A stretch of DNA of 64,000 nucleotides, taken from Leucoraja ocellata. Its lineage: Eukaryota. Both the position numbers and the translations under genes were made by a program. Position 1 is the first letter of the stretch; the number at the start of each line of letters is the position of its first letter. The notes under the pieces are model-generated. The model saw only the letters and a program-made list of their open reading frames with translations. It searched no databases and was not told the origin of the DNA. The stretch is taken from contig JAWMAR010001602.1 of NCBI GenBank assembly GCA_036785375.1, positions 1 through 64,000 on the forward strand. The letters are read 5' to 3'. Positions 8,471 to 61,578 of the stretch are shown here, in pieces.

Positions 8471-8544
8471 TGATACAGATGCACAAGAGGGTAATAAAAC
8501 AGCCTGCTTTTCCGCTTCTTACACAATATAAGCAAAATATAAGC

Positions 8545-22561: not shown

Positions 22562-23075
22562 TGACAATAGACAATAGACATTAGGTGCAGGAGTAGACCA
22601 TTCAGCCCTTTATGCCAGAACCGCCATTCACTGTGATTATGGCTGATCATCCACAATTAGTGCCCCGTTCATGCCTTCTCCCCATATCCCCATGACTCCA
22701 CTATCTTTAAGAGCTCTATCTAACTCTTTCTGGAAAGCATCCAGAGAATTGGCCTCCACTGACTTTTGAGGCAGAGAATTCCACAGATTCACAACTCTCT
22801 GGGTGAGAAAGCTTTTCCTCATCTCCGTTCTAAATGGCCTACCCCTTATTCTTAAACTGTGCCCCCTGGTTCTGGACTCCCCCAACATCGGGAACATGTT
22901 TCCTGCTTCTAGCGTGTCCAATCTCTTAATAATCTTATATGTCTCAATAAGATCCCCTCTCATTCTTCTAAATTCCAGAGTATACAAGCCCAGTCACTGC
23001 ATTCGTTCAACAGTCCCGCCATCCCGGGAATTAACCTCGTGAACCTACGCTGCACTCCCTCAATAGCAAGAATAT
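22562..23075 (-). mobile_element. CR1 LINE 3' fragment
   Basis: ORF 22637-22987 is the CR1 C-terminus; (CTATTGT)n tail. Confidence 0.85.
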
Positions 23076-29727: not shown

Positions 29728-32700
29728 ACATCATTCAGGACCCTGCTGTTATATCCAATGCTTTCAACCAGCACTTCTCCACTGTATGTAGCTCTACTGT
29801 ATTTGACTCATCTATTATATGTGACTTTCCAGCTACCTCTACATGTAGAAGCTCTTTTTCTTTTCAAAAAATAAAACCTGTTGACGTTCAACATGCTATT
29901 AATGAATTAAAGGATGATTGTGGATCTGGACCAGCTGGTATTGAGACTAAATTCATTAAGATAGGAGCTAATATTCTAATGTACCCACTATGCGACCTGT
30001 TTAATTTGTCTTTCTCAACTTGTACCCTCCCTTCCGCATGGAAGTGTGCTAATGTTACTCCACTGCATAAGGGAGGCGAACCACACGATATTAACAATTA
30101 CCGCCCCATCTCAATTATCAACTCGGTGGCTAAAATCCTTGAGAAACTAGTGTTCAACCAGCTTTCACATTATGTCTCAACTTTCAACATTCTATCTCCA
30201 TGCCAGTCTGGGTTCAGACCTAATCACTCCACAGTTACAGCTCTGTTAAAACTCACCAGCGATGTGTTCACTGCTTCTGAGGATGGTAAACTCATCGGTG
30301 CCATCTTTCTTGATTTAACCAAGGCCTTTGATGTTGTTGACCACTACCTACTGCTTGATAAACTTTACTCTATTGGTCTTTCTCAAAACAATCTACTGTG
30401 GTTTAACTTGTACCTTCATAACAGACGCCAATGTGTCACCTTTAATGGAAGTCAATCCAATTTCTTAATTGTTGAGAAGGGGGTCCTGCAAGGTTCGTCC
30501 TTGGGACCACTCCTTTTCTCTATTTTCATAAACGACCTCCCTAATATCTGTTCTGATTGTCAAACACAACTATATGCCGATGATGCAGTGCTATATACAT
30601 CTAGTACTAACAAATCAGAAATTTAAAGATCCCTTCAATTCGATCTTACTTCTGTTCAGAAATGGCTATTATTTAACAAATTAATTTTAAATAAAAACAA
30701 ATCATGCAGTATGTTATTTGGTTCCAGACAAGGCCTTGGTAATTCTGTAGATTTGACTATATCATTTATTGAAGGATCACCATTAGAACAAGTATTGAAC
30801 TTCAAATATCTTGGTGTTTGGCTCGATCCAACGCTTTCATTTACGAAACATAGTGAGACGATTACTAAAAAACTCAGCTGTAATCTAGCTATTCTTTACC
30901 GCCATATAAATTGTTTCACCTTTCAGATGAGAAAATGAATTGTCTCTCAACTACTACTACCAACACTGGATTATGCTGATATTGTCTATCAGAATACATT
31001 TGATACACATCTTCAACCTCTCAATGTAGTTTATAATAGTCTTTGCAGATTTATTTTAAGGTGTCCATATATAACTCACCACTGTTCTATGTCCGAAACT
31101 CTAAACTGGTTATCCCCCCACGCTCGAAGATGCTAACACTGGTTCCAGTTTATCTTTAAATGCATCCATCTCAATTACCCTTCTTATCTAAAACAAGACC
31201 TATTACCATACACACCCTCATACTCACTAAGACATATTCAGCAACCCTTCTTTTTCATTCCAAGAACTAACGAAGAAATTGGGAGACATGCATTTAAATT
31301 CAAAGCTCCTTCTGACTGGAACACTTTGCCTAGTACCATAAGAACTATTAGCTCATTTCGTCTATTTAAAAATACACTTTTACCCTTCCTTATAAAACCA
31401 TGTACCTGTTTCTAGTATTAGAGTCTTCAAGCTCCTTTATCTAGCTTGCTCTGTGTGATCATTTGTGCTGTAACATATAACTGTTATTATTATTGGATAT
31501 GTAAAGTCAATTAACAATTGTTATTTATTTATTTATTTATTTATTTATTTTTTGAAAATATTTTTTATTGGAGATAGGTACATAATCTATTACATCATTA
31601 CTGTCTTACATTTTTTAATTGATAATATTGTCAGTTATTATTACATTGTCTCCAATACTTTTTGCCTTTTTCTTCATTTTTTTTAAAAACTAGATAGAAC
31701 TAAAGAGATAGATGAAGAAAAGGAAGAAAAGAAAGGAAAGAAAAACAAAAACAAAAAAACAAAAAACAAAAACAAAAAAAAACAAAAAAAGGGAAAGAGC
31801 TAGTTAAAGAAGAATGGAAAAATTTATTAAAATAAAAAACATCGTTCGAGATATGTTCGTACATTTCAGAGTATAGCATTTCATCCAATCTTTAGCCCGA
31901 GTGCTAGTCAGGTTCCTGTGCTGAACTATTCTGACCCTTTAAGTAATCAATAAAAGGAGACCATGTTCCAACGAATAATTCCTGTTTGTCCAACAGGGAG
32001 AATCTGATTCTTTCCACGTTTAAGGTCTCCGTCATTTCTATAATCCACATTTTGATTGTGCCTTTCCAAAATTTTAGAATTAATTTTTTTCCTGTTATTA
32101 AATTATAATCAATAAAGTTTCTTTGTGTTATTCTAAATGTTTGATTTAATTCTAATATTCCGAGTATTATTAATTTTGGATCTGGTTCCAATTGTGTGTT
32201 GGTTACTTTAGATATTATACTAAAAATATTTACCCAGAATTTTTTAATTTTTGTACAGTTTGCAAACATATGCGATAATGTAGCTTCTAAATGTTGACAT
32301 TTATCACATATAGGTGAAATATGTTGAAAAATTTTATGTAGTTTTGTTTTTGAATAATGTAACCTATGTATTACTTTAAATTGTATTAGAGAATGTCTGG
32401 CGTTTAGTGAACACTGATGTATGTGTTGCAAACTTTCTTCCCAAGTATCTTTCGTTATTACTTGATTTAATTCTTTTTCCCATGTTTGTCTGTGTAAGTC
32501 CGTCGAAGGAATGTCACTGTCTAATAAGATATTATATATATAAGATATTAATTTTTCTGTATTAGGATGTTTGTTCCAACATTCATCAAGAATTTCTGAG
32601 CTTCTAATTCGAAAATTTTGAGAGTTCGATTTTACATAATCTCTAAGTTGAAGATATCTGAAATAATCATTTCCTCGAAGTCCATAAGTCTGTTGCAACT

Positions 32701-35091
32701 CCTGAAATGTCAGAAAAGTGCCTTCCTTGTAAAGTTGTCCCATATTTTTAATTCCATAATTCTTCCATTGTGTAAAACCCGTCTAACCATGAAGGCTTAA
32801 ACAAAGGATTATTCACAATTGGAAGAAAAAGTGATGTTATCTAATTTTAATGTCTTTTTTAATTGTTTCCAAATTCGTATAGCACTAAATATTATAGGGT
32901 TTCCCTATAAATTTTTTTGTTTAATTTAGACGTAGCAAATAATATCGAACCGATATCAAAAGGTAGACAATCTTCCTTTTCCATTTTTAACCAGTCTGGT
33001 TGATGATCTATTTCTTCCAACCAGAAATTCATATTTTTAATATTAACTGCCCAGAAATAAAACAAAAAGTTAGGTAAAACCAAGCCTCCATTTCTTTTTG
33101 ATTTACACAGGTGTCTTTTGTTTATCCTATGATTCTTATAATCCCAGATAAAATCATTAACAATAGAGTCCAATTTAAAAAAAAAGTTTTTGCCAGGTAT
33201 ATCGGAATCGTCTGAAAAAGGTATAATATTTGCGGTAAAAAAATCATTTTTATGGCATTAATTTTGCCAACCATTGAGATAGGTAGTGTTTTCCAGTATT
33301 GGATATTCTTATGTAGTTTGTTCAGTAATGGGGGGAAATTTGCTTTAAATAATGATGTATATATCTTAGTTACATAAATACCTAGATATTTAAATTTTGC
33401 ATTTACTATTTTAAATGGAAATTGTTGTATTATCTGTTTGTTATGTTCCCTTATTGGCATAATTTCACTTTTGTTCCAATTTATTCTGTATCCTGAAAGT
33501 GAACCGAATTGGTTTATTAGCTTTAATAAGTTTGGGATACTAATTTCTGGTTTTGTAATGTAAATTAATACGTCATCTGCGTATAGAGAAATTTTATTCA
33601 CTGTGTCCTTAGTGTTATACCCATGTATTTCCGGATGCCCCCTAACTCTTTCTGCCAGTGGCTCAATAGCAAGCGCAAATAATAATGGAGATAACGGGCA
33701 TCCTTGTCTACAACCTCTAAATAGGCTAAATTTAGATGACAACCTTTGGTTCATAAATATTCTAGCCGTGGGATTTGTATATAACAGTTTTATCCATGTA
33801 CAGAATTTCTCCCCTAGCTGCATCTTTTCCATCACCGAAAATAAATAAGGCCATTCGACCTGATCAAATGCTTTTTCAGCGTCAAGTGAGGTTATTGCTA
33901 GATCTTCATTAATAATTCTCTTGGAATATATAATATTAAATAATCTTCTTAGATTATAATATGAGTACCGTTTCTGAATACAGCCTGTTTGGTCAGGGTG
34001 TATTAATTTATTCATCACTGTACTTAATCTATGCGCTAGTATTTTAGTTAATATTTTCTGGCCTGTATTCAGAAGTGCAATTGCTCTGTATGATCCCGGG
34101 TCTTCCGGTCTTTATCAGCTTTAGGAATAAGTGTTATTATAGATTCATTTAAAGTGTCTGGAAGTTTCTGTTGAGTATAGATATACTCATACAGTCTTTG
34201 TAAACGTGGGCAAAGCAAATCATAAATTTTTTTGTAAAATTCGGAACCTAAACCATCTGGTCCTACTGCTTTACCATTTTTTAGAGAGCCAATAGACTCC
34301 TCAATATCCTTTATCGTAATCTCCCTTTCTAATAGTTCTCTATCGTTTGAATCTAGACCTTTTAGATTACATTTTATTAAAAAATCTGCTATTCCTTCTG
34401 ATTGTGCTACGGTTTTAGTTGAATAAAGGTTATGATAGTATTGGAGAAATCTATCATTTATATCCTTGGGCATTTTTAATAATTCTCCTGTCTCTGTTCT
34501 AATTTTATGAATTATTTTTTCCCCTTCCATTTTTCGTAACTGGCGTGCTAATAGTTTTTGTGGTTTGTCTCCAAATTCAAAATGTAATTGTTTGGTTTTT
34601 TGATAAAGTTTTATTACTTGTTCTGAATACATTTTATTTAATTTATATTTCAATACAGCAATTTTATTATGTTTTAACGTAGATGGTATTCTCGCATTTT
34701 CTATATCTAGTTGCTTGATTTCACTTTCCAATGTTTGTTGTTTAATCCTGTTTTCTTTATTATAAAATGCTTGAGCAGAAATTAATGTACCTCGAACATA
34801 CGCTTTGAACGTTTCCCACATAAGAGAAATAGGTGTGTCAGGGTTGTCATTTACCTCAAAAAATATTTGAATCTGTTTAATAATATATTCCTGGCATGAT
34901 CTTTCGAATTAACAATTGTTATAAACTATAACAAGTGGGGATGGAGAAGTTATGGGATTGGTGTGTGGGTAGGTGGGTCAATGAGAGCCTTTATGTATGT
35001 TATGTCTTGTGCTGTATGTTTTATGTTGGACCCCCTCGAAAACGAGATGACTGTCCATCTCAAGGGGTTATCCATGAATAAACTTGTTTCA
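29728..35091 (+). mobile_element. L2/Crack-like LINE (5'-truncated), inserted in HERO and split by L1
   Basis: NYRPISI, QSGFRPNHST, FLDLTKAFD, QGSSLGP and LYADD motifs; 3' UTR hairpin and AATAAA at about 35030-35085; 5-bp TSD AACTG (29723-29727 / 35092-35096). Confidence 0.82.
31525..34906 (-). mobile_element. L1/Tx1-clade LINE, 5'-truncated ORF2 with frameshifts
   Basis: GPDG, LDAEKAFD, RQGCPLSP, LYADD and C-terminal CxxC...HxxxxC; (AAAT)n tail; 16-bp TSD AATTAACAATTGTTAT (31509-31524 / 34907-34922). Confidence 0.92.
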
Positions 35092-38000: not shown

Positions 38001-39045
38001 GGGGTAGAGTATTGACATGGATAGAGAACTGGTTGGTGGACAGGAAGCAAAGAGTAGCAATTAACGGGTCGTTGCTGGGACCCTGATTGTTTTCAATATA
38101 TATCAACGATTTAGACGAGGGAATTAAATGTAACCTCTCTAAGTTTACGGGTGATACAAAGCTAGATGGCAGTGTGGGATGCAAGGAAGATGTTATGTGG
38201 CTACTGGGCTTATAGCATCTTGTACAGGTTGGGTGAGTGGGCAGAAGCATGGCAGATGCAGCATAATGTGGATAAATGTGAGGTTATCCACTTTGGTAAT
38301 AATGGTGTCAGATTAGGAGAATGGGATGTGCAACGAGACCCGGGTGTGCTTGTACATCAGTCACTGAAAGTAAGCATGCAGGTACAGCAGGCAGTAAAGA
38401 AAGCAAATGGCATGTTGGCCTTCATAGCGAAAGGATTTGCATTTAGGAGCAAGGAGGTCCAACTGCAGTTATACAGAGCCCTGGTGAGACCGCACCTGGA
38501 GTATTGTGTGCAATTTTCATCTCCTAATTTGAGGAAGGACATTCATGCCATTGAGGGAGTGCAGCGTAGGTTCACCAGGTTAAATCCCGAGATGGCGGAA
38601 CTGACGTATGATGAAAGAAGGGGTCAACTGGACTTGTATTCACTGTAATTTAGAAGGATGAGAGGATATCATGTAGAAACATATAAAATTCTTAGAGCAT
38701 TGGACAGGGTAGGTGCAGGCATAATGTCCCGATGTCAGGGGTGTCCAGAACTAGGGGTCACAGTTTAAGATTTTAACGGATTGGCCATTTCGGACTGAGA
38801 TGAGGAAAACCTTTTTCACCCAAAGAGATGTGAATCTGTGGAATTCTCTGCCACAGTGGAGGCCAATTCACTGGACGTTTTCAATAGAGTTAGATTTAGC
38901 TCTTAGGGCTAACGGACTCAATGGATATGGGGAGAAAGCAGGAACGGGGTACTGGTTTTGGATGATCAGCCATGATCGTATTGAGTGGCAGTGCTGGCTC
39001 GAAGGGCCGAATGGCTTACTCCTGCACCTATTTTCTATGTTTCTA

Positions 39046-41013
39046 ACGAGTAATCTGAGATCGAACGGCCAACTCGTGCGATCTATCTGTTAACCTTTTG
39101 TCCTCCTATGTTATATCAAATCCATTTAAACTCGCTGCCATATTGTTCAGGTTCCCCGTGTCTTCTCCAAGACAACATGTCCATTAAATCGGTGGGGAAA
39201 ACTAAATTAACTTTATTAATGCCTCACACTTCCCTCTAATTGTTTGTGTTTATGTGGCTCTACAGAGATAGTCCTTATTATCATAAGAATGCACATTGAA
39301 TAAATGATAAAATGACTAATAGCATAAGCAAGAAATGCATTTCAGATTCTGCTGAATCAGAATATCCCCCCCCCCCCCCTCTTCTACATTTTCTGTGGCA
39401 AAATGCTGAATGATGGGCAAGAGCCCACCATGTAACTGAAAGGAAACACCTTTGTCGGCCGTGCTGCTAAATTAATCAGGCACTTTCAGTCTGTTGCTCA
39501 AACACTAAAAATTCTGATGGTGAATAACAACTAACAAAATATAAAAAACTACCTTGCAATCTATATCTCGCAAACTTCCAGCTACCAATCGTATTGGTTA
39601 CATGCTGCATCATTTCGATTAAATTGTCAGGAGTATCCATTGTGATCATGTAAATCCCAGCTACTGTGTTTGGTTGGGATTAGCTTTCACGTTTACAGTG
39701 GGCATCAATGTGTCTTGGATTCTGTATGGAATCCGTTTAGAGATGATCTGACACAGGGTTTTCAGGTCGTTCATATAGTGGGTATGATTGTTAGTCACAC
39801 ACCACACAGTTAGTGACCTGAGTAAAAATGAGTAAAATACCGAATGGATGTTCATTATCTTCCAGTTTAGCGAAGGCCAGAGGTGTCCACGTTGTTTCCC
39901 TTTGCACACTGAAGCCGTGATATTCTTTATGTTTGCATACAGTCTAGTAAAATCGCACAGTAGACCTCATAGAAACATAGAAACATAGAAATTAGGTGCA
40001 GGAGTAGGCCATTCGGCCCTTCGAGCCTGCACCGCCATTCAATATGATCATGGCTGATCATCCAACTCAGTATCCCGTACCTGCCTTCTCTCCATACCCC
40101 CTGATCCCCTTAGCAACAAGGGTCACATCTAACTCCCTCTTAAATATAGCCAATGAACTGGCCTCAACTACCCTCTGTGGCAGAGAGTTCCAGAGATTCA
40201 CCACTCTCTGTGTGAAAAGAGTTCTTCTCATCTCGGTTTTAAAGGATTTCCCCCTTATCCTTAAGATGTGACCCCTTGTCCTGGACTTCCTTAACATCGG
40301 GAACAATCTTCCTGCATCTAGCCTGTCCAACCCCTTAAGAATGTTGTAAGTTTCTATAAGATCCCCTCTCAATCTCCTAAATTCTAGAGAGTATAAACCA
40401 AGCCTATCCAGTCTTTCTTCATAAGACAGTCCTGACATCCCAGGAATCAGTCTGGTGAACCGTCTCTGCACTCCCTCTATGGCAATAATGTCCTTCCTCA
40501 GATTTGGAGACCAAAACTGTACGCAATACTCCAGGTGTGGTCTCACCAAGACCCTGTACAACTGCAGTAGAACCTCCCTGCTCCTATACTCAAATCCTTT
40601 TGCAATGAAAGCTAACATACCATTCGCTTTCTTTACTGCCTGCTGCACCTGCATGCCTACCTTCAATGACTGGTGTACCATGACACCCAGGTCTCGCTGC
40701 ATCTCCCCCTTTCCCAATCGGCCACCATTTAGATAATAGTCTGCTTTCCCGTTTTTGTCACCAAAATGGATAACCTCACATTTATCCACATTATACTGCA
40801 TCTGCCAAACATTTGCCCACTCACCCAGCCTATCCAAGTCACCTTGCAGTCTCCTAGCATCCTCATCTAGGTAGTGCACAATGTGTCACCATGTTTCTGG
40901 CACCGAGAATGTTACAAAATGTCTATTGAACAGACATCGATGGCACGTCAGTCAAAAGTCAATTTCTTTGCACCGATAGAATCCGTCTTTGATTTAACCA
41001 TTTAATCACAGCT
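39046..41013 (+). repeat. Duplicated non-coding block, copy A (paralog at 58212-59953)
   Basis: Co-linear similarity with copy B over about 1.1 kb; interrupted here by CR1 39971-40860. Confidence 0.9.
39971..40860 (-). mobile_element. Young CR1 3' fragment
   Basis: Open ORF 40067-40879; flanked by CCTCAT; empty site visible in the paralog at about 59804-59810. Confidence 0.92.
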
Positions 41014-46516: not shown

Positions 46517-49500
46517 ATTTTACTTCGGAGTCACGTGAGTGACTACATGAAGAACCCGCCAGTACGCATGCGTATCATTATTGCTACACACATTGCAACG
46601 TCATTGGGGGAAGGAAGGACGTTCCTCCCAAACGGCAGGTTTGGAACCTACAACAGTAGGTAAGAGAACTTTGTTTCTTTTTTACTTACCTTTGTTTACA
46701 GGAAGGCTGTGGAAAGCTGGCGTGGGAGAGCTGCTATATAGGAGCAGGCAGCCAGCAACGGCCGGTGGCACGACAATCTCCCTTGGCGGGAGCCGGTGCG
46801 ACTTCAGCTCCAGCAAGGGTACGGGTCGCCGACAACCGATGGAGCACTCGGGAGCCGTCAATCTGATGATTCGGAAAAGCCCAAGGACCTACAGGGTAAG
46901 GAGCGCTACATGGGTCCGTGGGGCTGAGAAATAAAAATAGCAGCGAGCGGTCGTTGCCCGTGAGCACCGGGTACGCGTTGGAGCTGCTGGGCCTGCGTCG
47001 CGAGCGTCCAGTTCCCCGAGAGGACTGCACCGCATTGGAGCACAGCAGGCCCACGTGGGAAAGGAGCGGCACAGTGCAGAGCACTGCACCGCGTCAAAAC
47101 CACCATACCTGCGGTTGCGAGCGGCCAGCTCCCCGAGAGGACTGAACCGCGTTGGAGCACTGCAGGCTAACGGTACTACGGGTGGCTCAGTGCCGTGAGC
47201 ACTGCACCGCGCTTTGGAGCACCGCAGGCCAACGGCACTACAGGGGACTCAGTGCCCTGAGCACTGCAACGCGTTGACACTGCGGGACCTGCACCTGCGA
47301 GAACATACCGCGTTTGCAGCGATGCAGGTCCAAAAAAGAAGAACAAATCCTCGAGTGGGTAACTCCCATGGCAGCACCTTATACAGGGCTGTATCTCACT
47401 TCTACTATTACAGGGAAGTGCTGGAGGAAAAGACAGACTTAGGGAGAAGGAAGCAGCACCTTTTCTTAGGGCTATAATCATGCTTCTCTCCATCCAGTAG
47501 ACTCTTTTGTCAGAAGAGTGCTGGGGTCAAGTCTAGGGCAAACCCTGGACAGGTAAACAGATGTAAGAGATGCTTTTTCTAAGTCACAAAGTACATAGAG
47601 TGCATTATTGGTCTTTTCCTGATAGAAATACAGGAATACTTATGTTGTGACTGAAGGATTTAGCAGACCAAAAATTTACTGACAAATTCCATTCCCATCT
47701 GGGAAGTCACATGGGAATGTCTGTCTATATTTCACGGGGAACAACAGTACAGATGTGAGTAAAGCTAACTGGGAAAGATCTACAAACCAGGTTAGAAGCC
47801 AGCATAGACCATATGTTTTCTATCTACTGCAGGGGAAAGCATTAGCTGACACCATAGCGGTCACTTGCCACTGGGGATTGTAAATCCCTGAATGTAATAA
47901 ACTAATCAATTTATGCATCTGGTTACATCCAACCGGGATTGACACGGGCCTGTGTAAACCCGAAACCTCCTAGCAATATTTTTTTATTTGGAGGTGACCA
48001 ATCTAGAAGGTCAAGGAGTTGGACAATGAAGCCAAATTGGAGCTCATCTAAACGTCCAAACATCATCCTCAAAGGTATCGCCCCTATATCTGAAGATGTG
48101 TACACCCACAACACACGGCCTCGGGGATCCAGATGACAACAGTAAAACCAGAAGGAAGCAAGGAGGTTGGTGCGAGAAGACATTGAATAAATAATTTTTT
48201 GACACTCGTATCTTAAACAGTATCCGGGAATACACAATAGAATTTTACAACACATAATCTTCTAGTCCAGCTGATATATCGAGAGAGGAATTTGGAGGAG
48301 AACACCAAATGGATATTGGGCTATAGTATTTGCTGATGTTTCTACACGATATGGAACACCAGATGCCGATCTACTCGTATCCAGACATAATCACCAATTA
48401 CCAAATATGTCATATGGGATACAGACACTGGACATCAGCAACGGATGGGTTTTAGCTGCATTGTAAGGGAAGAATTATTATCTACGCATTCCTTTCCTAA
48501 CAAAATAGGATATGGCGCTTGACGCATCAAACATAGATCAGATCTCGGCTTTTTGGCCAAGATCAAGCATAATATCTGGGTTTTTATCAGTTTAAATATC
48601 TGATGTCCCTTATCTAGGGACCATATATTAAAAATAAATAAATAAATAAAATTAATAATACGATATATTCGTTAAGAACGGAAACCTTTTCTATTGTTAA
48701 GTATATTCGTTTTAAGAACGAAAATGGCAAGCATTGATTCAAAGGATGCTTACTATTTTCAGTACCCATAACAGGTGACCACGGACGTTATTTTATCTAA
48801 TTGGATGGCTCAGCTCTAGCAGTATAGAGCACTACCTAATGTGTTTACATTAGCACCTAGGTTATTTACAAAATATAACAACCAGCCACACAATGGTAAT
48901 GGCTTCTTTGGATGACATACTAATTGTGCAGAACTTAGGACGGGCTGAACAAACGGTAACAGCCCTTTAACAATTATTTGGAAACTAGGATTCATTATCC
49001 ATCCAATTAAATCAAAATTAAAGCCTTCAAACTAAAGGGATTATTTGGGGTTCACCAATAACTCAGTTCCTCATGTCAGTAACTTTGCCAACAGAGGTTA
49101 CAATCTTAATAAAGGCATACAGCAAAATCATTGACATGAGGATAAACCATTCATCAGACTGGTAGCAAGAATTTTGGCAACAGGTGGTACTGGGAATATG
49201 GGTTCCAGCCACATAATTCAGACCCTTACATTATAAAGATTTACAGAGGGCCAAAATATGAGCTCTTAAAATTAATGGTGATCATTTCGATAGAATGATG
49301 AAGCCATATTGGAACTAAATGGTGGAAAGATAACATTGGGCATTGCTCCAATCCTATCATTGTCAGCAACCAGTCTATGGTCCTACATATGCATGCTATG
49401 CACTAGGATGGTGTGTTACCAATTCCATCTCCAGCTGTGGAGGAAGATGGAATACACAGGAAGCATCATTATTACAAACACTGGGCATAACTACCTGGAA

Positions 49501-51223
49501 ATGTTGGGTGTTTTTTCATGGCCTAAAGTCATGTTGCTCTGGAATATGTTAAACAGGTTATTATAGATTATAAATTAACAATACTACTGTGGTAGCACAT
49601 ATCAACTGTGGTAGCACATGGGTAAAAGGGAATCTACATCATGTAACAATCTGGCCAACACAATTTGGCAACCTCATCAGTAGGGGTGTTTTTAATAGTA
49701 CCCCACTGACCTACCCAACCATGGTTCTCGGTGCTACTGGGAATGAGATTAGAACCATGCAGCACCATCCTAAACAGACGATGAAGTATGGGGAAAACCA
49801 CCCGTGCCATGAACATATAAATCGCATAAATCATAGAGTCTGAAAGCGCAACTATTACATCTGCGGCTGACGGCCAGAGCAATGGACATGATCACAGTGG
49901 GCCACAGACAATCAACCTAAAGACAATGTCTAAAATACATAAACTAATGGGAGATGTGTTGCAACCATAATACATCATCCAGCCTGTTTGGCAGCTTTGT
50001 TAACCTACAGGCGCTTAGTATTAGTGATATCAACTGTGCCAGAAGTGGTCCATCTACTTACCTATGGCAAGAGAACGGAACAACAGCTTATGGGGGACAC
50101 TTTTATGGGAATTCCCCAAAGACCAGGTATTCCCAAATACGGGACATCAGCATCGTCTTAACGTTGTTAAAGAACTGGGCTCCAGCCACAGCGCTGTCAT
50201 TACAGTTTTTTTGACATTTTACAAAACTGTCATGCTGATGGCTTAGGTCACGGCACTAAGGACTCAGTCCCTACCAAATTAAGACTGGATAACTAGACCA
50301 GTTCACCTGGCAACTTACACTTCTATATTCAGGAGTTAGGGAACTAAACAGACAGGGGTCAGCGGGCCTTAAAATAACATTTTTAGAGCCTACCCTACAG
50401 ATGATTGCCTGTTGTGAGACATCTACAAATATACATGGAACAAACCAAGACCATCAGTGGCACAGAAGAGGAACTTCTCATCAACTACAGACAGCCTCAT
50501 TAAAGAATAACAGGCCAGGCCAGCTAAATGGCTAACATAGTATTGACCAAAGTTGGTGTAAACACTAACTTGGTTAAAATCTCACTCCACCAGGCTGCAG
50601 CAACGTCGGCAGCATTTAAATTGGAGGTTTTCCTATGGATAAAATCCTCAGGACTGCAGGATGGCCATCGGAAAGAACATTCTAAAGATTATAACAAACC
50701 AATAATGGAAACAGGAAATTTTCAGAAATATTGTTAAGTTTCTGTACCATAATATACCCCAAAAAACAGGGGCTATCAATTATTATTAACTTTATGGTTA
50801 TTTATATATATCATATTGATGTTTAATATGTTATCACTATTCTCCCCATAACCAAGGCAGACATGATGATCCACGGCTTGAATCACAGAGCTTTGAAATC
50901 TTCATGTAGTCACGCACGTGACTCCGAAGTAAAATAGTAAGATTAAACGAGAACTTACCAGTTCGAAGTTTGATCTGTATTTTATGAGGAGTAACGTTGA
51001 GGGAATACATGCCCTCCGCTCCCACCCTTGATCATAAACACGACTGGTATCTTTTTCTCTAATCTTACTATGCTTAAGTCATTACAGGTATCTGTGATTC
51101 ACACTGCTGCTTTGAACAATGACACGCATGCGTACTGGCGGGTTCTTCATGTATTCCCTCAACGTTACTCCTCATAAAATACAGATCAAACTTCGAACTG
51201 GTAAGTTCTCGTTTAATCTTACT
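46517..51223 (+). mobile_element. DIRS-type retrotransposon with decayed coding regions and near-perfect termini (putative non-autonomous)
   Basis: Left end ATTTTACTTCGGAGTCACGTGAGTGAC; ICR 50899-51011 complementary to the left end (36/37) and to the right extension 51148-51223 (76/76); ITR 46546-46579 vs 51118-51151 (33/34). Broken gag, RT, RH, MT and YR remnants are homologous to the intact neighbour. Confidence 0.92.
48537..48632 (+). pseudogene. RNU2: 3'-truncated U2 snRNA pseudogene with an (AAAT)n tail, inside the DIRS RT remnant
   Basis: ATCAGATCTCGGCTTTTTGGCCAAGATCAAGCATAATATCTG...TTATCAGTTTAAATATCTGAT...CATATATTAAA aligns with about nt 1-95 of U2 as recalled. The branch-site-pairing GTAGTA is mutated and the fragment ends before the Sm site. 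Confidence 0.88.
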
Positions 51224-51693
51224 ATTTTATTCACAATGATAGGATTTCAGAGAGGTTGAATGAATGAAAAAAAAGTTCAACAAAATTAGATCACAAGAAA
51301 GAAACTCGAGAAACATACATATGTGTGTGTTATATATTTAAATACATATATATCACATATATACGCATCATATTTACATACATATACATCACATATATAT
51401 ACACGCATCATATATATATATATATATATGATGCGCATATATGTGTGATGTATATGTGTATATATGATGCATATATGTGTGATATATATGTATATAATTT
51501 TACTTCGGAGTCACGTGAGTGACTTCGTGAAGAAGCCCGCTCAGGGCGCAGGTGCGGCATTACGCCAGCAAGTGCAACAGCGGCGGCAGCTGGAGTCAGG
51601 CTCTCCAGCTGCACTTTAAAAGCGCACTTTCAGGTAAGTGAAGGGTGCGTTGGGAACGGAGCGAGTAGGAGTTGGTTTTTGTTTCAGGAAAAC

Positions 51694-52929
51694 ATGTCCC
51701 AACGCAAGAGACTCGCGACCAGAGCTGCCCGAGCTTTAACTCCGCCAGAGGAGTCTATTCCAGCGGGGCAGCAGCCAGCGGCACTACCGCTGGAACAGCG
51801 GTTTGAGATTCCTCAGACCGAGCCGGGCCCAGTCACGCCAGAGCCTACACGGCGGGCTGGGAAAGCCACCTGTAAAACTAACCGGCCGGTCGATTCCGAT
51901 TCGTTGGAGGAGGACATGTCCACCCCCAAGCTGGGGAGAGACAGCCGCTTAAGCAGCATCATGCAGCTGCTGGAGGGGATGGTCTACCGGGAGCAGCAGC
52001 GCTCTCGGTCAGACAGGACAGGCGCCCCCTCCATGGTGCTGAGTCCGGCACCCCCCTTTGCGACCTCGGACCAGGACTGGGAGGTCAGCATCGGTGACCA
52101 GGAGCAGGCTGGTCTGAATATGGGGCAGGCGGAAGGTACCGACAAAGAGCAGGGTGTGCAGGAAGAGCTGCTAGGGGTAGTAACACGATTCGTTGCTACC
52201 CCACGGGTTGGAGCACCACTGCAACCTAGAATGGCTGCAAGTATCAATCATCTATCAAATAAGCCATTGCAGGAAAAGGTGCTCGCCCAAGTGCTGGACG
52301 AGCACATCGCCCCAGACAACTGTGAAGCCCTGAAGGTCAAGAGCCTCAACCCTCAGATATGGGGTAACGTGGGTGGACCTATCCGCACTCAGGAGGTCAA
52401 ACTGCAGCGGGTACTTCGCCTCCTGATGGCGGCGATAACAGCATACGTACGGGGAGTCGAGACCACAGAAATGACAGCTCATCAACAGGATGTCTTGGCG
52501 CTCATGTGCACCACGCAATACGAGCTGAACAATCTCAGGAGAGATAACATTAGGCCGGCACTGAATCCTAAATTTGCAGGATTGTGTAAGGCTCCCACTG
52601 TAGAGACCGACTCATTTCTTTTTGGAAAAGATTTAAATAAACAACTGAAAGAAATGGAGGAGGCTTCGAAAACCTTTAGCCTCATGAGGGCAACACCGCC
52701 AGCACCTGTACCGAAGCTTTTTATAACACCAAGGCGGCAGCACACCGCTGCATCCACCAGTCGGCATCATCCATATGCGACTGGTCAAAGCTTGGGGCCG
52801 CACTATCCCCAGAAACCTTTTTTAGGTCAGGGCCTGCAGCGGACCCCCTGGAAAATGCGCCTCCCCCCAACATCGCCAGCTCGTCAACAGAAAACATCCA
52901 AAAAGAGAAAACCTCAACCCCGCCAATAA
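51694..52929 (+). CDS. DIRS ORF1, gag-like protein (411 aa from the first ATG)
   Basis: Long open frame upstream of RT with a basic C-terminus. The track start at 51679 is TTG; the first ATG is 51694. Confidence 0.85.
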   Translation: MSQRKRLATRAARALTPPEESIPAGQQPAALPLEQRFEIPQTEPGPVTPEPTRRAGKATCKTNRPVDSDSLEEDMSTPKLGRDSRLSSIMQLLEGMVYREQQRSRSDRTGAPSMVLSPAPPFATSDQDWEVSIGDQEQAGLNMGQAEGTDKEQGVQEELLGVVTRFVATPRVGAPLQPRMAASINHLSNKPLQEKVLAQVLDEHIAPDNCEALKVKSLNPQIWGNVGGPIRTQEVKLQRVLRLLMAAITAYVRGVETTEMTAHQQDVLALMCTTQYELNNLRRDNIRPALNPKFAGLCKAPTVETDSFLFGKDLNKQLKEMEEASKTFSLMRATPPAPVPKLFITPRRQHTAASTSRHHPYATGQSLGPHYPQKPFLGQGLQRTPWKMRLPPTSPARQQKTSKKRKPQPRQ

Positions 52930-52931
52930 CC

Positions 52932-54863
52932 ATGGAGGTAGGTGGATCTGGTTCCTACCCGCATATTGTGAATAAGGGTGAATTACTAACAGGGGGAAGG
53001 TTACGCTTATTTACAAAAGCATGGGGGAGGATCACAGATGATAAATATATACTTAATAGTATTCAAGGTTATAAAATAGAGTTTATTTCGAGTATACCGC
53101 CAGTTCAACACATGCCTAAGAGGACATTTGTACTCTCCAACAAACAACAACTGGAGGGACAAGCTGAACTGGTAAGGCTTATAAACAAAGGGGTCATAGG
53201 AAAAACTATTCATGAGCCCTTGGAATTTGTTTCCAATATATTTACTAAATGTAAAACGGATGGTGGATGTCGCATCATCATTGACTTAACATCCTTGAAT
53301 GTGTTTGTTAAGTATATACATTTCAAAATGGAAACATTTGCGACTGCTAGACAATTGATTTTCAAAGGATACTATATGGCCAGCATCGATCTCAAAGATG
53401 CTTACTATCTAGTACCGATACATAAAGATTATAGCAGATATCTTAAATTTATCTGGATGGGGGAGCTTTGGCAGTATAAAGCACTGCCTAATGGGCTTAC
53501 TTCAGCTCCAAGACTATTCACTAAAATATTGAAGCCAGCCATGGCAATGTTAAGGAAACAAAACCATATAGTCATGGCATATTTGGACGACATCCTCATA
53601 GTTGGGAAAACTATGGAATTGGCTGTAGCAGCAGTATCAGCTACAAAACAGCTCCTAGAAACTCTAGGGTTTGTCTTACATCCAGATAAATCCAAGTTAA
53701 ATCCATCCACAATTATGGACTACTTGGGGTTCACAATTAACTCAGTCCAAATGACGATTACCATGCCAAGGGAAAAAATGATTGCATTAACACAATCATG
53801 TGAAAACTTAAAAGTAAAGAGAAAGCCAACTATTCGACAAGTGGCTGCAGTAATTGGAAAAATGGTAGCAGCTTTTCCAGCTATCCAATTTGGACCTTTG
53901 CACTATCAAAATTTGCAAAGAGCAAAGATAATAGCATTAAAATGGCACAGAGGTCATTATGATCGGATTATGACTATACCCCCTGAAGCAATAGCAGAGC
54001 TACAGTGGTGGATTCAATATATTTGGCATGGTTATAGTCCTATAGTTATCACTAATCCTACGTTAGTAATCCAAACCGATGCTAGTGCTCAAGGCTGGGG
54101 AGCAACTAACTCCATATCCAGCACAGGTGGTAGATGGACTAACTCAGAATCCTCATTACTATCTACACTGGGCATTAACACTTTGGAAATGTTGGGCGCC
54201 TTTTATGGTTTGAAAGCATATGCGTCTGATATGCGTCACTTGCATGTTAGATTAGAAATAGATAATACAACGGTGGTGGCTTATATTAACCATATGGGCG
54301 GCATCAAATCTTTATCATGCGACAAATTGGTTAATATGATTTGGCAATGGTGTGTCGAAAGACATATTTGGCTTTCAGCTACCTATCTACCAGGTAAGCT
54401 AAACATAGTGGCGGACACCAGGTCACGGAAATTCAATGATAACATCGAATGGATGTTAAATCCTAAAACATTTGCTAAAATTGTAAAGCAATATGGGAAG
54501 CCAGATATAGATTTATTTGCATCAAGACTGAATCACCAACTACCAGTCTATGTCGCGTGGGAACCAGATCCGGAGGCAGCAGCGGTAGACGCTTTTACGT
54601 TAGATTGGGGAAAGTTTGTGTTTTATGCTTTTCCCCCCTTCTGCCTCATTAGTCGGGTGCTTCGAAAAATCCAGACGGATTCAGCGTCTGGAGTTTTGGT
54701 GGTGCCCGACTGGCCTACACAGACATGGTTCCCAATTCTCCAGGACATGGTGGTGGAAACACCTATGGTATTCCCCAGTCATCCAGGGTTACTGACTCAC
54801 CCAGTATCAGGCATCAGCCACCCATGCCACAAAGATATGAATCTCCTGGGTTGCAGATTTTAA
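52932..54863 (+). CDS. DIRS ORF2: reverse transcriptase, RNase H and adenine-methyltransferase-like domain
   Basis: GGRL, DLKDAY, LPNGLTSAPRLF and YLDD; RNase H TDAS..GWG, LEM, DNTT and ADTRSR; MT DLFAS...YAFPPF...VPDWPTQTWF. Start context ACCATGG. Confidence 0.96.
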   Translation: MEVGGSGSYPHIVNKGELLTGGRLRLFTKAWGRITDDKYILNSIQGYKIEFISSIPPVQHMPKRTFVLSNKQQLEGQAELVRLINKGVIGKTIHEPLEFVSNIFTKCKTDGGCRIIIDLTSLNVFVKYIHFKMETFATARQLIFKGYYMASIDLKDAYYLVPIHKDYSRYLKFIWMGELWQYKALPNGLTSAPRLFTKILKPAMAMLRKQNHIVMAYLDDILIVGKTMELAVAAVSATKQLLETLGFVLHPDKSKLNPSTIMDYLGFTINSVQMTITMPREKMIALTQSCENLKVKRKPTIRQVAAVIGKMVAAFPAIQFGPLHYQNLQRAKIIALKWHRGHYDRIMTIPPEAIAELQWWIQYIWHGYSPIVITNPTLVIQTDASAQGWGATNSISSTGGRWTNSESSLLSTLGINTLEMLGAFYGLKAYASDMRHLHVRLEIDNTTVVAYINHMGGIKSLSCDKLVNMIWQWCVERHIWLSATYLPGKLNIVADTRSRKFNDNIEWMLNPKTFAKIVKQYGKPDIDLFASRLNHQLPVYVAWEPDPEAAAVDAFTLDWGKFVFYAFPPFCLISRVLRKIQTDSASGVLVVPDWPTQTWFPILQDMVVETPMVFPSHPGLLTHPVSGISHPCHKDMNLLGCRF

Positions 54864-55834
54864 ACCGACCTTACCTGGATCTGGGGCTATCGGAACAAAC
54901 CATCGCCACCATGTCAGCATCCCTACGGATATCCACGAAGAGGCAGTACCTAACCTGCATCAAAAAATGGGAAACGTACTGCCAGAAAACCGGGATTGCT
55001 TATAAAACGGCCACAGTAGCGGATGTTCTGGAATTCCTGGCAGACTTACATCATCGTGAAGATTTGAGCTACAGTGCCATCAACACGGCACGTAGTGCTC
55101 TTTCAAATTACCTCGAACCTGCGGGACATCAGGCCATGGGAGCCCATCCGCTGGTGGTAAAACTGATGAGGGGCATATTTAACAGCAAGCCCCCCACCCC
55201 GAGATATACAAAAATCTGGGATGTCAGTGTTGTACTAACATACCTTCGGGACAGACCACCAGCCAGATCTCTCAGCTTAGAGCAGTTGACTTTAAAAACA
55301 CTCATGCTCATGGCGCTAGTATCTGCACAGAGGGTCCAGTCCTTACATAAACTTCGACTGGACAACATGGACACTACATCGGATCAGATCACATTCACTA
55401 TTCAAGGTCTGATAAAACAGTCCAGGCCAGGAACATCAAACACGCTAGTGGCATTCCGGGCATACCCACTAGAGCCACGATTGTGTGTGGTGACCCACAT
55501 AAATATTTACATAGACACTACCCATAACATCAGAGGAAGTGAGAGAGCCTTATGGGTCAGCCACAGGAAACCACATGGCAGGGTAACAAGTCAAACCATT
55601 TCAAGGTGGTTGAAACAGGTTTTGGAAGCTGCTGGAATTAACATTAATCTGTTTAAATCTCATTCCACCAGGGCAGCATCCACATCATCGGCGGCCAGAA
55701 TGGATGTGCCTGTGGACTTAATCCTCAAGAAAGCAGGATGGTCACGGGAAGCCACATTCCGAACATTTTATAATAAACCGTTGGTGGAACCTGATATATT
55801 TGCAGTCAGCATTTTAGAAACTGCAAATGTTTAA
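54725..55834 (+). CDS. DIRS ORF3: tyrosine recombinase
   Basis: SAQR (catalytic R), HSTRAAS (HxxR) and AGW...TFRTFYNK (W and catalytic Y); overlaps ORF2 by 139 nt. Confidence 0.94.
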   Translation: MVPNSPGHGGGNTYGIPQSSRVTDSPSIRHQPPMPQRYESPGLQILNRPYLDLGLSEQTIATMSASLRISTKRQYLTCIKKWETYCQKTGIAYKTATVADVLEFLADLHHREDLSYSAINTARSALSNYLEPAGHQAMGAHPLVVKLMRGIFNSKPPTPRYTKIWDVSVVLTYLRDRPPARSLSLEQLTLKTLMLMALVSAQRVQSLHKLRLDNMDTTSDQITFTIQGLIKQSRPGTSNTLVAFRAYPLEPRLCVVTHINIYIDTTHNIRGSERALWVSHRKPHGRVTSQTISRWLKQVLEAAGININLFKSHSTRAASTSSAARMDVPVDLILKKAGWSREATFRTFYNKPLVEPDIFAVSILETANV

Positions 55835-58211
55835 TTTAAAGCCCGGGGGAGCTATTTTTTCTTTTGTTATTGTTAATAAATACCGTTTTGTTTTCAAAAC
55901 AGATTCATTGGTTGATTACAATAACACTTCCTTCCTCAAGAGCTTTCGGTAGTGAGTGTATAAACTGTTACACGGTTTGAAATCACAGAGCTTTGAAATC
56001 TTCACGAAGTCACTCACGTGACTCCGAAGTAAAATAGTAAGATTAAACGAGAACTTACCAGTTTGAAGTTTGATCTGTATTTTATGAGGAGTTACGATGA
56101 GGGATTACGTGCCCTCCGCTCCCACCCTCATTACATGGATCAAACCGATAAATTGATGTCTCTTTGTTCTTTACTATGTTACTTCAAATACGTGTCTGTC
56201 TGTGATTCCACACCGCTGCTTGGAAGCATGCCGCACCTGCGCCCTGAGCGGGCTTCTTCACGTAATCCCTCATCGTAACTCCTCATAAAATACAGATCAA
56301 ACTTCAAACTGGTAAGTTCTCGTTTAATCTTACTAATATATAACACACATACATATTTCTCGAGTTTCTTTATATATATATAAACATATATTCATTATAT
56401 ATATATATATATATATAATGTGTTTATATATATATAAGAAACTAGAGAATTATGTATGTGTGTTATATAATTATATACATCAATATCACATTTATATATC
56501 TGTGTATCATGTATATAATATATGTGTTTATAATATATAAATATAGGCAAATATATTGGCTTATGGCTTATGTTCCTTATATCTTATAGCAAAATATAAA
56601 GGCGAATATAATTGTCTTTATGGCTTATGTACTTCATGAGAATGGCTCATGTACATCATAAGTTGCTTTAAATCAAAGTTACTTCTGGTCCATGAGGAAC
56701 TTTGAAATATATTATCTATATCTTGCCACTCACACACAGAAACATACACATACCGTTCCCCCACAACACTGATTAAACAAAAGATCATAGAATTCATATG
56801 GTCCAGAGAGCTTTCATTGAGCATTGTTGCTCATTTTATACGCAGTTTCCCTTTTTAATTTTTGTTTTTAGAGGAGCACCTTATTTATTATCAACAAAGA
56901 TAATAATGGTCTAACATGGAAGGCTAAGAGACCAAGATAAACTACAAAATCCAATAGACTGATGTGGATTAAACTGCGAGAGGCAGAACGGAGATCGGGG
57001 TCTTATTCCTAAAATGGCGGAAGTGACGTTCCGTGATGTTCCGATCCGTACTACACGTCAGCCCATTGGATTTCGTAGGAGTGGTCTATCTTGCTCCTCT
57101 AGTATCTTTGGTTCACACTGCCACCCATCGTTGTGTCATCTGGAAATTTGCTAATGTTACTTTGAATCCCTTCATCCAAATCATTGATGTATATTGTAAG
57201 TAGCTGCGGTCCCAGCACCGAGCCTTGCGGTACCCCACTAGTCACTGCCTGCCATTCTGAAAGGGACCCCGTTAATCCCTACTCTTTGTTTCCTCTCTGC
57301 CAACCATTTCTCTATCCATGTCAGCACTCTACCCCCAATACCATGTGCCCTAATTTTGCCCACTAATCTCCCTATGTGGGACCTTATCAAATGCTTTCTG
57401 AAAGTTCAGGTACACTACATCCACTGGCTCTCCCTTGTCCATTTTCCGAGTTACATCTTCAAAAAATTTCAGAAGATCTGTCAAGCATGATTGCCCCTTC
57501 ATAAATCCATGCTGACTCGGACCGATCCTGTTACTGCTATCCAAATGTTCGGCTATCTCATCTTTTATAATTGACTCCAGCATCTTCCCCACCACCGATG
57601 TCAGGCTAACTGGTCAATAATTCCCTATTTTCTCTCTCCCGCTTTTCTTAAAAAATGGGATAACATTAGCTACCCTCCAATTAACAGAAACTGATCGTGA
57701 GTCTAAAGAACATTTGAAAATTATCACCAATGCATCTACGATTTCTAGAGCCACTTCCTTAAGTACCCTGGGATGCAGACCATCGGGCCCTGGGGAGTTA
57801 TCAGCCTTCAGTCCCATCAGTCTACCCAACACCATTTCCTGCCTAATGTGGATTTCCTTCAGTTCCTCCATCACCCCAGATCCTCTGGCCACTACTATAT
57901 CAGTAAGATTGTTTGAGTCCTCCTTAGTAAAGACAGATCTAAAGTACCTGTTCAACTCATCTGCCATTTCTTTGTTCATCAGAGGTGTGAATCTGTGGGA
58001 TTCTCTGCCAGAGGAGGCAGTGGAGGTCAAGTCACTGGATGTTTTCAAGAGAAAGTTAGATTTAGCTCTTAGCACTAACAAATTCTAGGGATATGGAGAA
58101 AATGCTGGTACTGATTTTGGATGCTCTGCAATGATCATATTGAATGGTGGTACTGGCTTGAAGGGCCGAATGGCCTACTCCTGCACCTAATTTCTATGTT
58201 TCTATGTTTCT

Positions 58212-59953
58212 AACTTGTAATCTGTGATCGAAAGGCCCACTCATGCAATTTATCTGTAACCTTTTGTCTGCCTAGGTAATGTCAAATTCATTTAAATTTG
58301 GTAACATATCGATCATCTTCCCCATTTCTTCTACAAGACTACATGTCCATTAAATCAAAGTGGGGAAAACTAAATTAACTTTATTAACACCTCACACTGC
58401 CCTCTAATTGTTTGTGTTTATGTGGCTCTGCAGAGATAGTCCTTATTATCGTAAGAATGCGCATTGAATAAATGATAAAATAACTAATAGTATTAGGAAT
58501 GAATGGATTTAAGATTCTGCCGAATCAGAATATCCCCCCTCTTCTACATTTTCTGTGGCCGAAGACAAAACATTTCATTGTGAATGATGGGCAAGAGCTC
58601 GCCATGTAACTGAAAGGAAACACCTGTGTTGACTGTGCTGCTAAATTAATGAGGCACTTTCATTCTGCTGCTCAAACACTGAAAACTCTGATGGTGAATA
58701 ACAACTAACAAAATAAAAATCTACCTAGCAACAGATCTCGCAAACTTCCAGCTACTAATCTTATTGGTTACATGCTGTATCATTTTGGTGAAACTGTCAG
58801 GAGTATCAATTCTGATCATGTATATCCCGGCTAATGTGTTTGATTGGGTTGCCTTTCACGTTTACAGTGGGCATCAATGTCTCTTAGATTCTGTATGGAA
58901 TCTGTTTAGAGATTATCTGACACAGAGATATAAGGTAATTGTGAATCACACACCACACAGATAGTGACCTGAATAAAACAGAGTAAAATATCGAATGGAT
59001 GTTCATTATCTTCCAGTTTAGCGAAGGTCAGAGGTGTCCACATTGTTTCCCTTTGCACACTGAAGCCGAGTACATGAAGTGAACGCATCTGCGTGAAGGT
59101 CACTGGGTGATATAATGTAGGCATGTGTGAAAATGTAAAACATATCTGGGATGATCAGTGGGGTCTGGATTCCATGTTCTTTAGCCAGAGCACACAGACG
59201 TTTTACAAATCGACCAATGCTGCGATCCATGTGTCCCCCGCCTATTGTATATTTCATAGAAACATAGAAAATAGGTGCAGGAGTAGGCCATTCGGCCCTT
59301 CGAGCCGGCACCACCATTCAATATGATCATGGCTGATCATCCAACTCAGTATCCTGTACCTGCCTTCTCTCCATACCCCCTGATACCTTTAGCCACAAGG
59401 GCCACATCTAACTCCCTCTTAAATATAGCCAATGAACTGGCCTCAACTACCTTCTGTGTCAGAGAATTCCAGAGATTCACCACTCTCTGTGTGAAAAATG
59501 TTTTTCTCATCTCGGTCCTAAAAGATTTCCCCCTTATCCTTAAACTGTGACCCCTTGTTCTGGACTTCCCCAACATCGGGAACAATCTTCCTGCATCTAG
59601 TCTGTCAAACCGCTTAAGAATTTTGTACGTTTCTATAAGATCCCCCTCAATCTTCTAAATTTTACTTTGTTTTAGCAAATGAATGCATCACAATGCAACA
59701 AAATCAATGGTTCAATTATTCAATTATACTTAATTGCCACTTGCACCTATGTACAATGATATTCTTTATGTTTGCATACAATCTAGCAAAATCGCACAGC
59801 AGACCTCATCTAGGAAGTGCACAAAGTGTCGCCATGTTTCTGCCGCCGTGAAAGTTACAAATTGTCTATCCAAAAAACATACATGACAGTTCAGTCAAAA
59901 GTCAATTTCTTTGTACCTATAGAATCCGTCCATTTAATCATTTAATCTTAGCT
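58212..59953 (+). repeat. Duplicated non-coding block, copy B (paralog of 39046-41013), with its own CR1 insert at about 59257-59660
   Basis: Co-linear similarity; both copies are directly preceded by a + strand CR1 3' tail. Confidence 0.9.
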
Positions 59954-59957
59954 GTAA

Positions 59958-60387
59958 AAAACCGGCCGGGACTAAAAATAGGTTGCCGTTTTAAAAATCG
60001 GTAATTCTTTAGTCGAAGCCGGTTGCGATACTAGTTGAAGGTGGTTGCCGGAGGTTGCAGGTTGTGGAAGGTAAGACCTCCCTGGTGGAATAAAACTGGG
60101 TGAAAAAAAGGTCTTACCTTCCACTACCTGCAACCGTCGCAACCATCTTCAACTAGCATCGCAACCGACTTAGACTAAAAAATTACCGATTTTTAAAACG
60201 CAACCTATTTTTAGTCACGGTCGGTTTTGAATTTTTTTAAATAATCGCCGGAACATAAAAGAAGCGGAAACCACTTTTGACCATTAGGGAGACTGACAAA
60301 GACCTCCGGGAACCACACGGAAACCTTGGGTGGGTACGCAAAGTCTCCAGAGGTTTCTGTTCAGGTTTCCTAAGTGGGACAGGGGCA
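59958..60387. mobile_element. Partial MITE related to 11786-12006, with internal long inverted repeats
   Basis: Ends in ...GGTTTCCTAAGTGGGACAGGGGC; inverted arms at about 59960-60048 / 60139-60226. Confidence 0.75.
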
Positions 60388-60389
60388 TA

Positions 60390-61578
60390 ACAAGTAGAAT
60401 GGATAAGGGAGAGCCAGTGGATGTAGTGTATCTGAACTTTCAAAAAGGCCCTATGCAAGAGATTAGTGTGCAGAATTAGAGCACAGGTTATTGGGGGTAG
60501 GGTATTGACACGGATAGAGACCTGGTTGGCAGAAAGCAAAGAGTAGGAATTGACGGGTCCTTTTTAGAATGGCAGGGAGGGAGTAGTGGGTTGCTGCCAG
60601 GCAGTACTGGGACCCCAGTTAATTACAATATATATTAACGAATTAAACGATGGGAATTAAATGTAACATCTCCAAGTTTATGGATGACAAAGATAGGTGG
60701 CAGAGTGAACTGAGAGGAGGATGCTATGAGCCTGCAGGGTGACTTGGATGTGTTGGGTGATGGGCAGATGCAGCATAATGTGGATAAATGTGAGGTTATC
60801 CACTTTGGTGTCATAATCACAAAGGCAGATTAAGAAAAGGGGAGGTGCAACGAGACCTGGATGTGCTTGTACATCAGTCACTGAAAGTAAGCATGCAGGT
60901 ACAACAGGCAATGAAGAAAGCGAATGGCATGTCGGCCTTCATTGCGAGAGGATTTGAGATTAGGAGCAAGGAGGTCCTACTGCAGTTGTACAGAGCCCTG
61001 GTGAGGTAGCACCTGGAGTATTGTGTGCAGTTTTAGTCTCCTAATTGGAGGAAGGACATTCTTGCTATTGAGGGCGTGCAGTGGAGGTTTCCCCAGGTTG
61101 ATTCCCAGGATGGCGGGACTGACATATGATGAAGGAATGTGTTGACTGGGCTTGTATTCACTGGAATTTAGAAGGATGAGAGGGCATCTTGTAGAAACAT
61201 GTACAATTCTAAAGGGATTGGAGAGGCTAGATGCAGAAAAAATGTTCCCCTTGTTTGGGGAGTCCAGAACCAGGGGTCACAGTTTATGAATAGGGTGTAG
61301 GCTATTTATTACTGAGATGAGGAAAACCTTTTTCACCCAGAGAATTGTGAATCTGTGGACTTCTCTGCCACAGAAGGCAGTGGAGGCTAATATTTGTTGG
61401 ATGTTTTCAAGAGAGAGTTAGATTTAGCCCCAATGGCTAACAGAATCAAGGGATATGGGGAAGAAGCACGGATGGGTTACTGATTGTGGATGATCAGCCA
61501 CGATCATGTTGAATGGTGGTGCTGACTCGAAAGGCCAAATGCCCTAGTTCTGCACCTATTGTCTATGTTTCAATGTTT
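60390..61578 (+). mobile_element. Degenerate CR1 LINE 3' half
   Basis: MDKGEPVDVVYL...LEYCVQF...3' UTR. Confidence 0.85.

Follow-up and report, generated by a model that had tools for sequence, protein, structure and literature searches.

Two neighbouring DIRS1-like elements

The window, by which I mean the whole stretch of 64,000 nucleotides analysed here (Leucoraja ocellata, contig JAWMAR010001602.1), holds two DIRS1-like retrotransposons, A and B, lying 273 bp apart in the same orientation. Their features are as follows.

46517..51223, plus strand: element A, a full-length coding-dead DIRS1-like retrotransposon of 4707 bp, member of a non-autonomous family
46517..46553, plus strand: left terminus of A, 36/37 complementary to the left half of the ICR
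46544..46582, plus strand: left ITR core of A, complementary to the right ITR (34/35 over element positions 28-62)
46579..46644, plus strand: non-coding conserved segment inside the left ITR of A, likely to act in cis (of 52 sites, 1 changed on the A stem)
46997..47301, plus strand: degenerate internal tandem repeats of A, in units of ~60 and 117 bp, differing in length between family copies
47762..48087, plus strand: gag remnant of A, 58% identical to family C gag aa 227-401, with 1 stop and 5 frameshifts
48298..48463, plus strand: displaced pol C-terminal piece of A with the DLFAS motif, upstream of RT (21/21 copies)
48646..49671, plus strand: RT-RNase H remnant of A, 63% identical to family C pol, with 6 stops and 15 frameshifts
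49837..50722, plus strand: tyrosine recombinase remnant of A, 66% identical to family C, with 5 stops and 13 frameshifts
50899..51011, plus strand: ICR of A, 113 bp, with the AAT circle junction at 50933-50935
51115..51161, plus strand: right ITR of A, pairing with 46536-46582
51148..51223, plus strand: right terminus of A, 76 bp, 76/76 complementary to the right half of the ICR
51224..51496, no strand: host spacer between A and B, 273 bp, ending in a TA-rich tract that became the insertion site of B
51497..56334, plus strand: element B, intact, DIRS1-like and from a younger family, with ORFs at 51523-52929, 52680-54863 and 54653-55834 and the ICR at 55999-56111

The gag, RT-RNase H-methyltransferase and recombinase regions are all there in A, as broken remnants 58-66% identical to the proteins of a coding family, C, to which I return below. 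(The methyltransferase label on the displaced pol piece comes from its position and its DLFAS motif, with no Pfam hit behind it.) A sequence-only reading of this DNA had called the ORFs of A heavily decayed, and so they are: the longest stop-to-stop frame on the plus strand is 127 aa, against 468, 727 and 393 aa for the three overlapping ORFs of B, which match Pfam RVT_1 (E 2e-19) and Phage_integrase (E 7e-10).

The ends of A are nearly perfect. The ICR mimics the circle junction across 113 bases, 112 of which pair with the joined ends, and the ICR and ITR pairings combined contain 2 mismatches in 148, in agreement with the "about 147" of the sequence-only reading. That reading also held that the junction CTTACT/ATTTTACTTCGGAGTCACGTG is common to A and B, and that differences between the two elements co-vary between ICR and terminus. 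Both statements stand. The junction occurs in each element, and the five bases that differ in the last 76 (71/76 alike) are mirrored in the ICR. The interiors of A and B are ~65-70% alike.

With the DIRS1-like group as described in PMC3266345, A shares its ITRs, two abutting ICR halves, ATT start and AAT junction, as well as the order gag-pol-recombinase and a size of 4.7-4.9 kb; the overlapping ORFs and the YLDD and HSTR motifs of that group are shared by the coding relatives B and C. A departs from the group in lacking any open frame and in having part of pol out of place. It lacks the split direct repeats of the PAT/TOC group, its ends consisting of inverted repeats with an ICR. The right flanks of family A copies begin with ATT or a one-base variant, ATT in most. 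In one run, X2, contigs with a joint from 46517 to 51226 omit the whole of A, possibly an empty A site, the short side of the joint being only 22 bases.

A family with inherited lesions

A search of its own genome with A gave at least 192 matches in the 33 candidates scored. The 30 loci retrieved fall into 17 flank groups and have precise ends; eight of them share flanks with the window's own A insertion and are segmental copies of it. Full-length copies at different sites are 2.1-5.7% apart. No coding-competent member was found in these 30 loci (no plus-strand ORF above 168 aa) or in 7 further loci sampled. Since the genome searches scored the best 27-40 candidates, the family is sampled, and A's lineage may still include an occasional coding copy. 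A 56-base terminus pattern of the A type has 475 exact matches in the genome and one of the B type 8460, where each element can yield two; reversed controls have 0.

Lesions were compared over 21 separate insertions (15 flank groups and 6 further loci) by frameshift-aware alignment to intact C proteins, leaving aside flank duplicates, a copy cut by a contig end (L020) and two with large deletions (L029 and L071). In C protein numbering, pol stops at residues 364, 386 and 567 are present in 21/21 insertions, those at 444 and 459 in 20/21, and that at 305 in 19/21. In the recombinase, the stops at residues 28, 155 and 242 are again in 21/21, and that at 37 in 20/21. Frameshifts at pol 338 and 540 and at recombinase 187 and 255 occur in all 21, at positions that depend on the script used for alignment and may be off by a few residues. 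The DLFAS piece of pol lies out of order, upstream of RT, in every one. Family C served as control: between pol residues 231 and 600 no lesion is shared by two of 14 copies, and five are free of lesions. One C copy has a stop of its own at pol 305, and the site must therefore be considered mutable.

Six stops, four frameshifts and a displaced piece of pol, all in 21/21 insertions, make A a member of a full-length non-autonomous DIRS family. The same lesions at separate insertion sites mean that the family multiplied after its RT and its recombinase were both dead. This is what the sequence-only reading had supposed, that A was mobilised in trans long after losing its coding capacity, and it had named identical lesions across loci as the way to find out.

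The same reading took the near-perfect pairing of ICR and termini to mean that the termini were fresh, and this part cannot be kept. Over 14 independent A copies there are 31 ICR-terminus mismatches, where 34 are expected from the private substitution rates. The ends are thus no fresher than the rest of each copy, and since mismatches are about as many as mutation after insertion predicts, gene conversion is unneeded. The alternative of lesions unique to this locus, with terminal identity due to local conversion, falls with it.

RNA reads from three runs, taken at 88% likeness, give depth mainly at the shared ends, and most are less than 95% alike (90-95%); none spanning the circle junction was among the reads listed.

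The segment that carries the window's A insertion has been duplicated at least eight times (L002/L172 at G000:C611:331500-345307, L016/L171, L021, L026-L028 and L030). One copy, 99.7% alike, has B, one is without it, and several have other insertions inside A. Three other loci (L005, L006 and L019) have a common left flank, with a different right flank in L019, perhaps by rearrangement or by recombination between two insertions.

Element B came later

The sequence-only reading saw in B the likely helper of A and gave weight to their tandem position. The paralogous segment L171 speaks to both ideas. Its identity to the window is 98.4% in A and 98.2% in the flank beyond B; it crosses the site of B without a break and has there a single AAT triplet and no target duplication. 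B was therefore inserted after A and after the segmental duplication. The 30 closest copies of B (best hits only) have 30 different flanks, are 0.34% apart as against ~3% for copies of A, and in 23 of 30 keep all three ORFs. Two relatives of B found by pattern are 7-9% from it, so that the B lineage already existed in A's time. B itself is a later insertion unrelated to A, and the weight given to the tandem arrangement finds no support.

Family C, the sister of A

Of 20 loci picked by their A-type terminus, seven are A, seven belong to a coding family of ~4.9 kb (family C), three are chimeras, and three (L074, L076 and L080) were left unparsed. In the last 76 bases A is identical to 4/4 copies of C. 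Of 25 C loci, 19 extend to the 3' end, and every one of these 19 ends in the A-type terminus; ORFs of 457, 768 and 325 aa are present in one C locus. A and C form a clade with support of 97/99 in the RT tree and 100/99 in the recombinase tree, from which 9/26 and 2/26 rows, respectively, were omitted as partial or mis-anchored; trees that join C to the next lineage are rejected (p-AU 1e-5 and 9e-4). Pairwise distances are 3.1% within A and 2.9% within C, ages that stand on only 6 and 4 copies, while the figure for B comes from best hits only. In their last 300 bases A and C are 94-97% alike, in the interior ~75-80%.

Judged by their sequences, then, A and C are sister families of the same age with a shared derived terminus. 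The terminal differences between A and B that the sequence-only reading seized on turn out to be marks that link A to C and not to B. Of the autonomous/non-autonomous pair that it proposed, one half holds, that A is non-autonomous and copied in trans; the partner was wrongly named, as it is C that carries the exact terminus of A. The helper is assigned here by kinship, shared ends and age, and its part could also have been played by older members of the B lineage or by other coding families, B-type ends being just five bases off.

At element positions 24 and 29, in the left end and ICR of some A copies and some copies of a chimeric family, E (L069 and L168), there is a C-type variant, GGGACTCC. 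A short segment of ICR may thus have passed between C and A.

What has been spared in A

If A had been coding for long after its split from C, the changes on its stem should tell. They are spread evenly over the three codon positions, 30/31/29 in RT-RNase H and 24/17/19 in the recombinase; those on the C stem favour the third (18/10/34 and 12/12/26). The even spread means that A was non-coding for most of its separate history.

The changes are spread far less evenly over the element as a whole. The A-stem count is 0/76 in the terminus, 0/116 in the ICR, 1/59 in the stretch before the ICR, 5/131 in the spacer and 1/52 in the 5' segment; in the interior it is 87/736 and 52/647, or 8-12%. The CpG spectrum, which might distinguish genomic decay from copying errors, has too few sites to inform. 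The cis regions were probably spared by repeated selection for copying. If so, the spared segments of A amount to a map of what a DIRS element needs in cis: its ends, its ICR, the 60 bases before the ICR, the spacer, and ~65 bases inside the left ITR.

A recent swap of the 3' end from C to A was also searched for and found no support, the spacer having 5 changes on the A stem and 5 on the C stem.

Chimeras and the proposed rewriting of the left end

Three classes of chimera join the 5' part of one family to the 3' part of another. Over its first ~2550 bases family E is 95-99% alike to another dead family, G, and after them 95-100% alike to A, with its breakpoint near 2555. A single locus, L163, passes from G to A later, near 3300. 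Family H is G-like in its 5' part and D-like in its 3' part. The G-5'/A-3' chimeras of family E (L066, L067, L079 and L166-L168) have themselves transposed to several sites.

In the model of Cappello, as PMC7192593 summarises it, the right repeat and the ICR together provide the sequence from which the left repeat is rebuilt. Elements with two parents are a natural test of this step of the 1985 replication model, which the same source calls largely untested. I compared 5 copies of E, the one of L163 and 6 of H with 3 of G, 11 of A and 6 of D. Of 15 regions examined, 3 have no reachable 3' end. Each class agrees with its 3' parent in all 9 diagnostic columns as far as base 56. From base 64 on the match is to the 5' parent, in 6/7, 7/7 and 17/18 columns. 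The left ITRs of the chimeras agree with their own right ITRs at 32-35 of 35 positions.

That the parent switches at the inner edge of the left ITR supports rewriting of the left end from the 3' end. A double crossover retained by selection would give the same pattern, and yet it need not land in the same window of 8 bases three times. The three cases are to be counted with some care, as E and L163 are possibly not independent and the 3' parent of H is merely a relative of D (87-95%). A switch between bases 56 and 64 also predicts where the copied RNA begins.

How A may have been copied, and what else might explain it

A is a copy of a full-length, coding-dead DIRS1-like family with shared lesions, and I propose that it was likely copied in trans by the RT and recombinase of its sister, C. 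Kinship, age and an exact terminus all point the same way, and I regard this account as probable. A would have lost its coding capacity soon after parting from C and would then have kept cycling through RNA, being transcribed and making use of C's RT and recombinase. Every cycle would see the left ~60 bases made anew, with the right ITR and the ICR as their source. The two ends would then be joined at the AAT/ATT junction, and the recombinase of the helper would insert the element at an ATT-like triplet in the genome, with no target duplication. Copies whose cis signals had failed would have been lost, hence a dead interior between intact ends.

Could the proteins have come from B, so that A and B are a non-autonomous/autonomous pair after all? 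They are 273 bp apart in the same orientation, they share the junction and 71/76 bases of terminus, and the B lineage is abundant and has older members. For this copy of B the idea is refuted by the paralogous locus in which its site is empty. The nearest 30 copies of B differ by 0.34% and those of A by ~3%, and it is C, not B, to which A is sister and whose terminus it matches exactly. I consider such a pairing very unlikely. Somewhat harder to dismiss, though unlikely as well, is that A was a single silent fossil, revived once by a fresh 3' end acquired from C through recombination. Swaps of 3' ends between families do happen in this genome, and the last 300 bases of A and C, 94-97% alike next to an interior of ~75-80%, are what a swap would leave. 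It is too much to ask of one 3' capture that it also spare the 5' segment, which lies outside the rewritten zone and has 1 change in 52 sites on the A stem. The spacer between ICR and ITR, with five changes on either stem, shows that A is not nested in present-day C, and all C-like lineages at equal interior distance are ~90% alike in this spacer.

There is finally the possibility that segmental duplication spread the copies and local gene conversion kept their ends matched, without any transposition once the genes were dead. Eight of the 30 loci do share the flanks of the window's insertion. The loci as a whole make up 17 flank groups with precise ends, mostly followed by ATT, and with 31 mismatches where 34 are expected there is nothing for conversion to explain. 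Unique flanks together with shared lesions already refute this account, and I give it almost no credence.

A wider and tentative reading suggests itself, to which I would give somewhat less than even chances: that the full-length dead DIRS families of this genome form a recombining guild in which the terminus acts as a password specific to the helper. On this view the G-5'/A-3' chimeras would be dead elements that exchanged B-type helpers for C-type ones, and a shift in the specificity of RT or recombinase would be marked by the 5-6 terminal changes on the stem common to A and C. Since the left end is rewritten in each cycle, a single crossover would provide a dead element with complete new ends and thus with a new helper.

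Relation to known systems

Autonomous/non-autonomous pairs are familiar among LTR retrotransposons, for example RIRE2/Dasheng, where the parasite retains the cis signals of its helper, the partners recombine, and LTRs are swapped. A and C differ from these in the chemistry of integration, which is by tyrosine recombinase and without target duplication, and in the geometry of end repair. A literature search for non-autonomous or chimeric DIRS, incomplete in its coverage, found mention of TOC1 only; it turned up neither a non-autonomous ITR/ICR-type family whose helper is named nor a test by chimeras. Repbase may hold non-autonomous DIRS entries.

TOC1 of Chlamydomonas is described in PMC9940879 as a non-autonomous DIRS retrotransposon, like A a coding-dead member of the order that still multiplies. 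PMC3266345 places TOC elements in the PAT group, which has split direct repeats, while A is of the ITR/ICR type and, unlike them, is near full length and has eroded remnants of all three genes. Non-autonomous DIRS are therefore already known; what is added here is the assignment of a helper and the test by chimeras. The word "autonomous" is absent from the main text of PMC3266345, and what PMC8498967 offers in the part consulted has nothing on non-autonomous or chimeric DIRS. In X. tropicalis, 36/75 families have degenerate ORFs or repeats and are not termed non-autonomous in the text of PMC9210276 considered here; Table S2 of that paper deals with degenerate Xenopus families and may affect how new the present case is. 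A parallel case in pararetroviruses is given in PMC5491270.

The nearest experiments are those on DIRS-1 of Dictyostelium discoideum as reported in PMC7192593, where the ICR is required for retrotransposition and RT is able to act in trans. A truncated construct yielded cDNA without completing the cycle. The cDNA was mostly linear and the circle junction was not amplified, so the circular step stays a model. The direction in which ends are restored is, in the genome considered here, recorded by natural chimeras.

The evidence at the level of copies is that DIRS elements of the ITR/ICR type support long-lived, full-length parasites. Broken DIRS copies, or broken entries in repeat libraries, should accordingly not be read as fossils.

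Other DIRS families and the rest of the window

At least four further near-full-length families have B-type ends and recombinase lesions shared within each family: D (L083, L084, L091, L095, L096 and L098), G (L092, L164 and L165), F (L086, L090 and L093) and H (L157-L170). Only 2 of 20 sampled loci with a B-type terminus are close relatives of B, from which it follows that dead families may outnumber coding ones. Several loci (L038, L060, L021 and L004/L014) have one DIRS element in or beside another, one of them within the other's ICR or terminus, which agrees with a note on DIRS-1 nesting in PMC7192593.

The window is otherwise filled with dispersed LINE-like and SINE-like repeats (for example 7082-9166, 22592-23012, 38301-40885 and 59255-61573), and longer ORFs outside the two elements lie at 14403-15545, 29460-30626 and 31904-34908.
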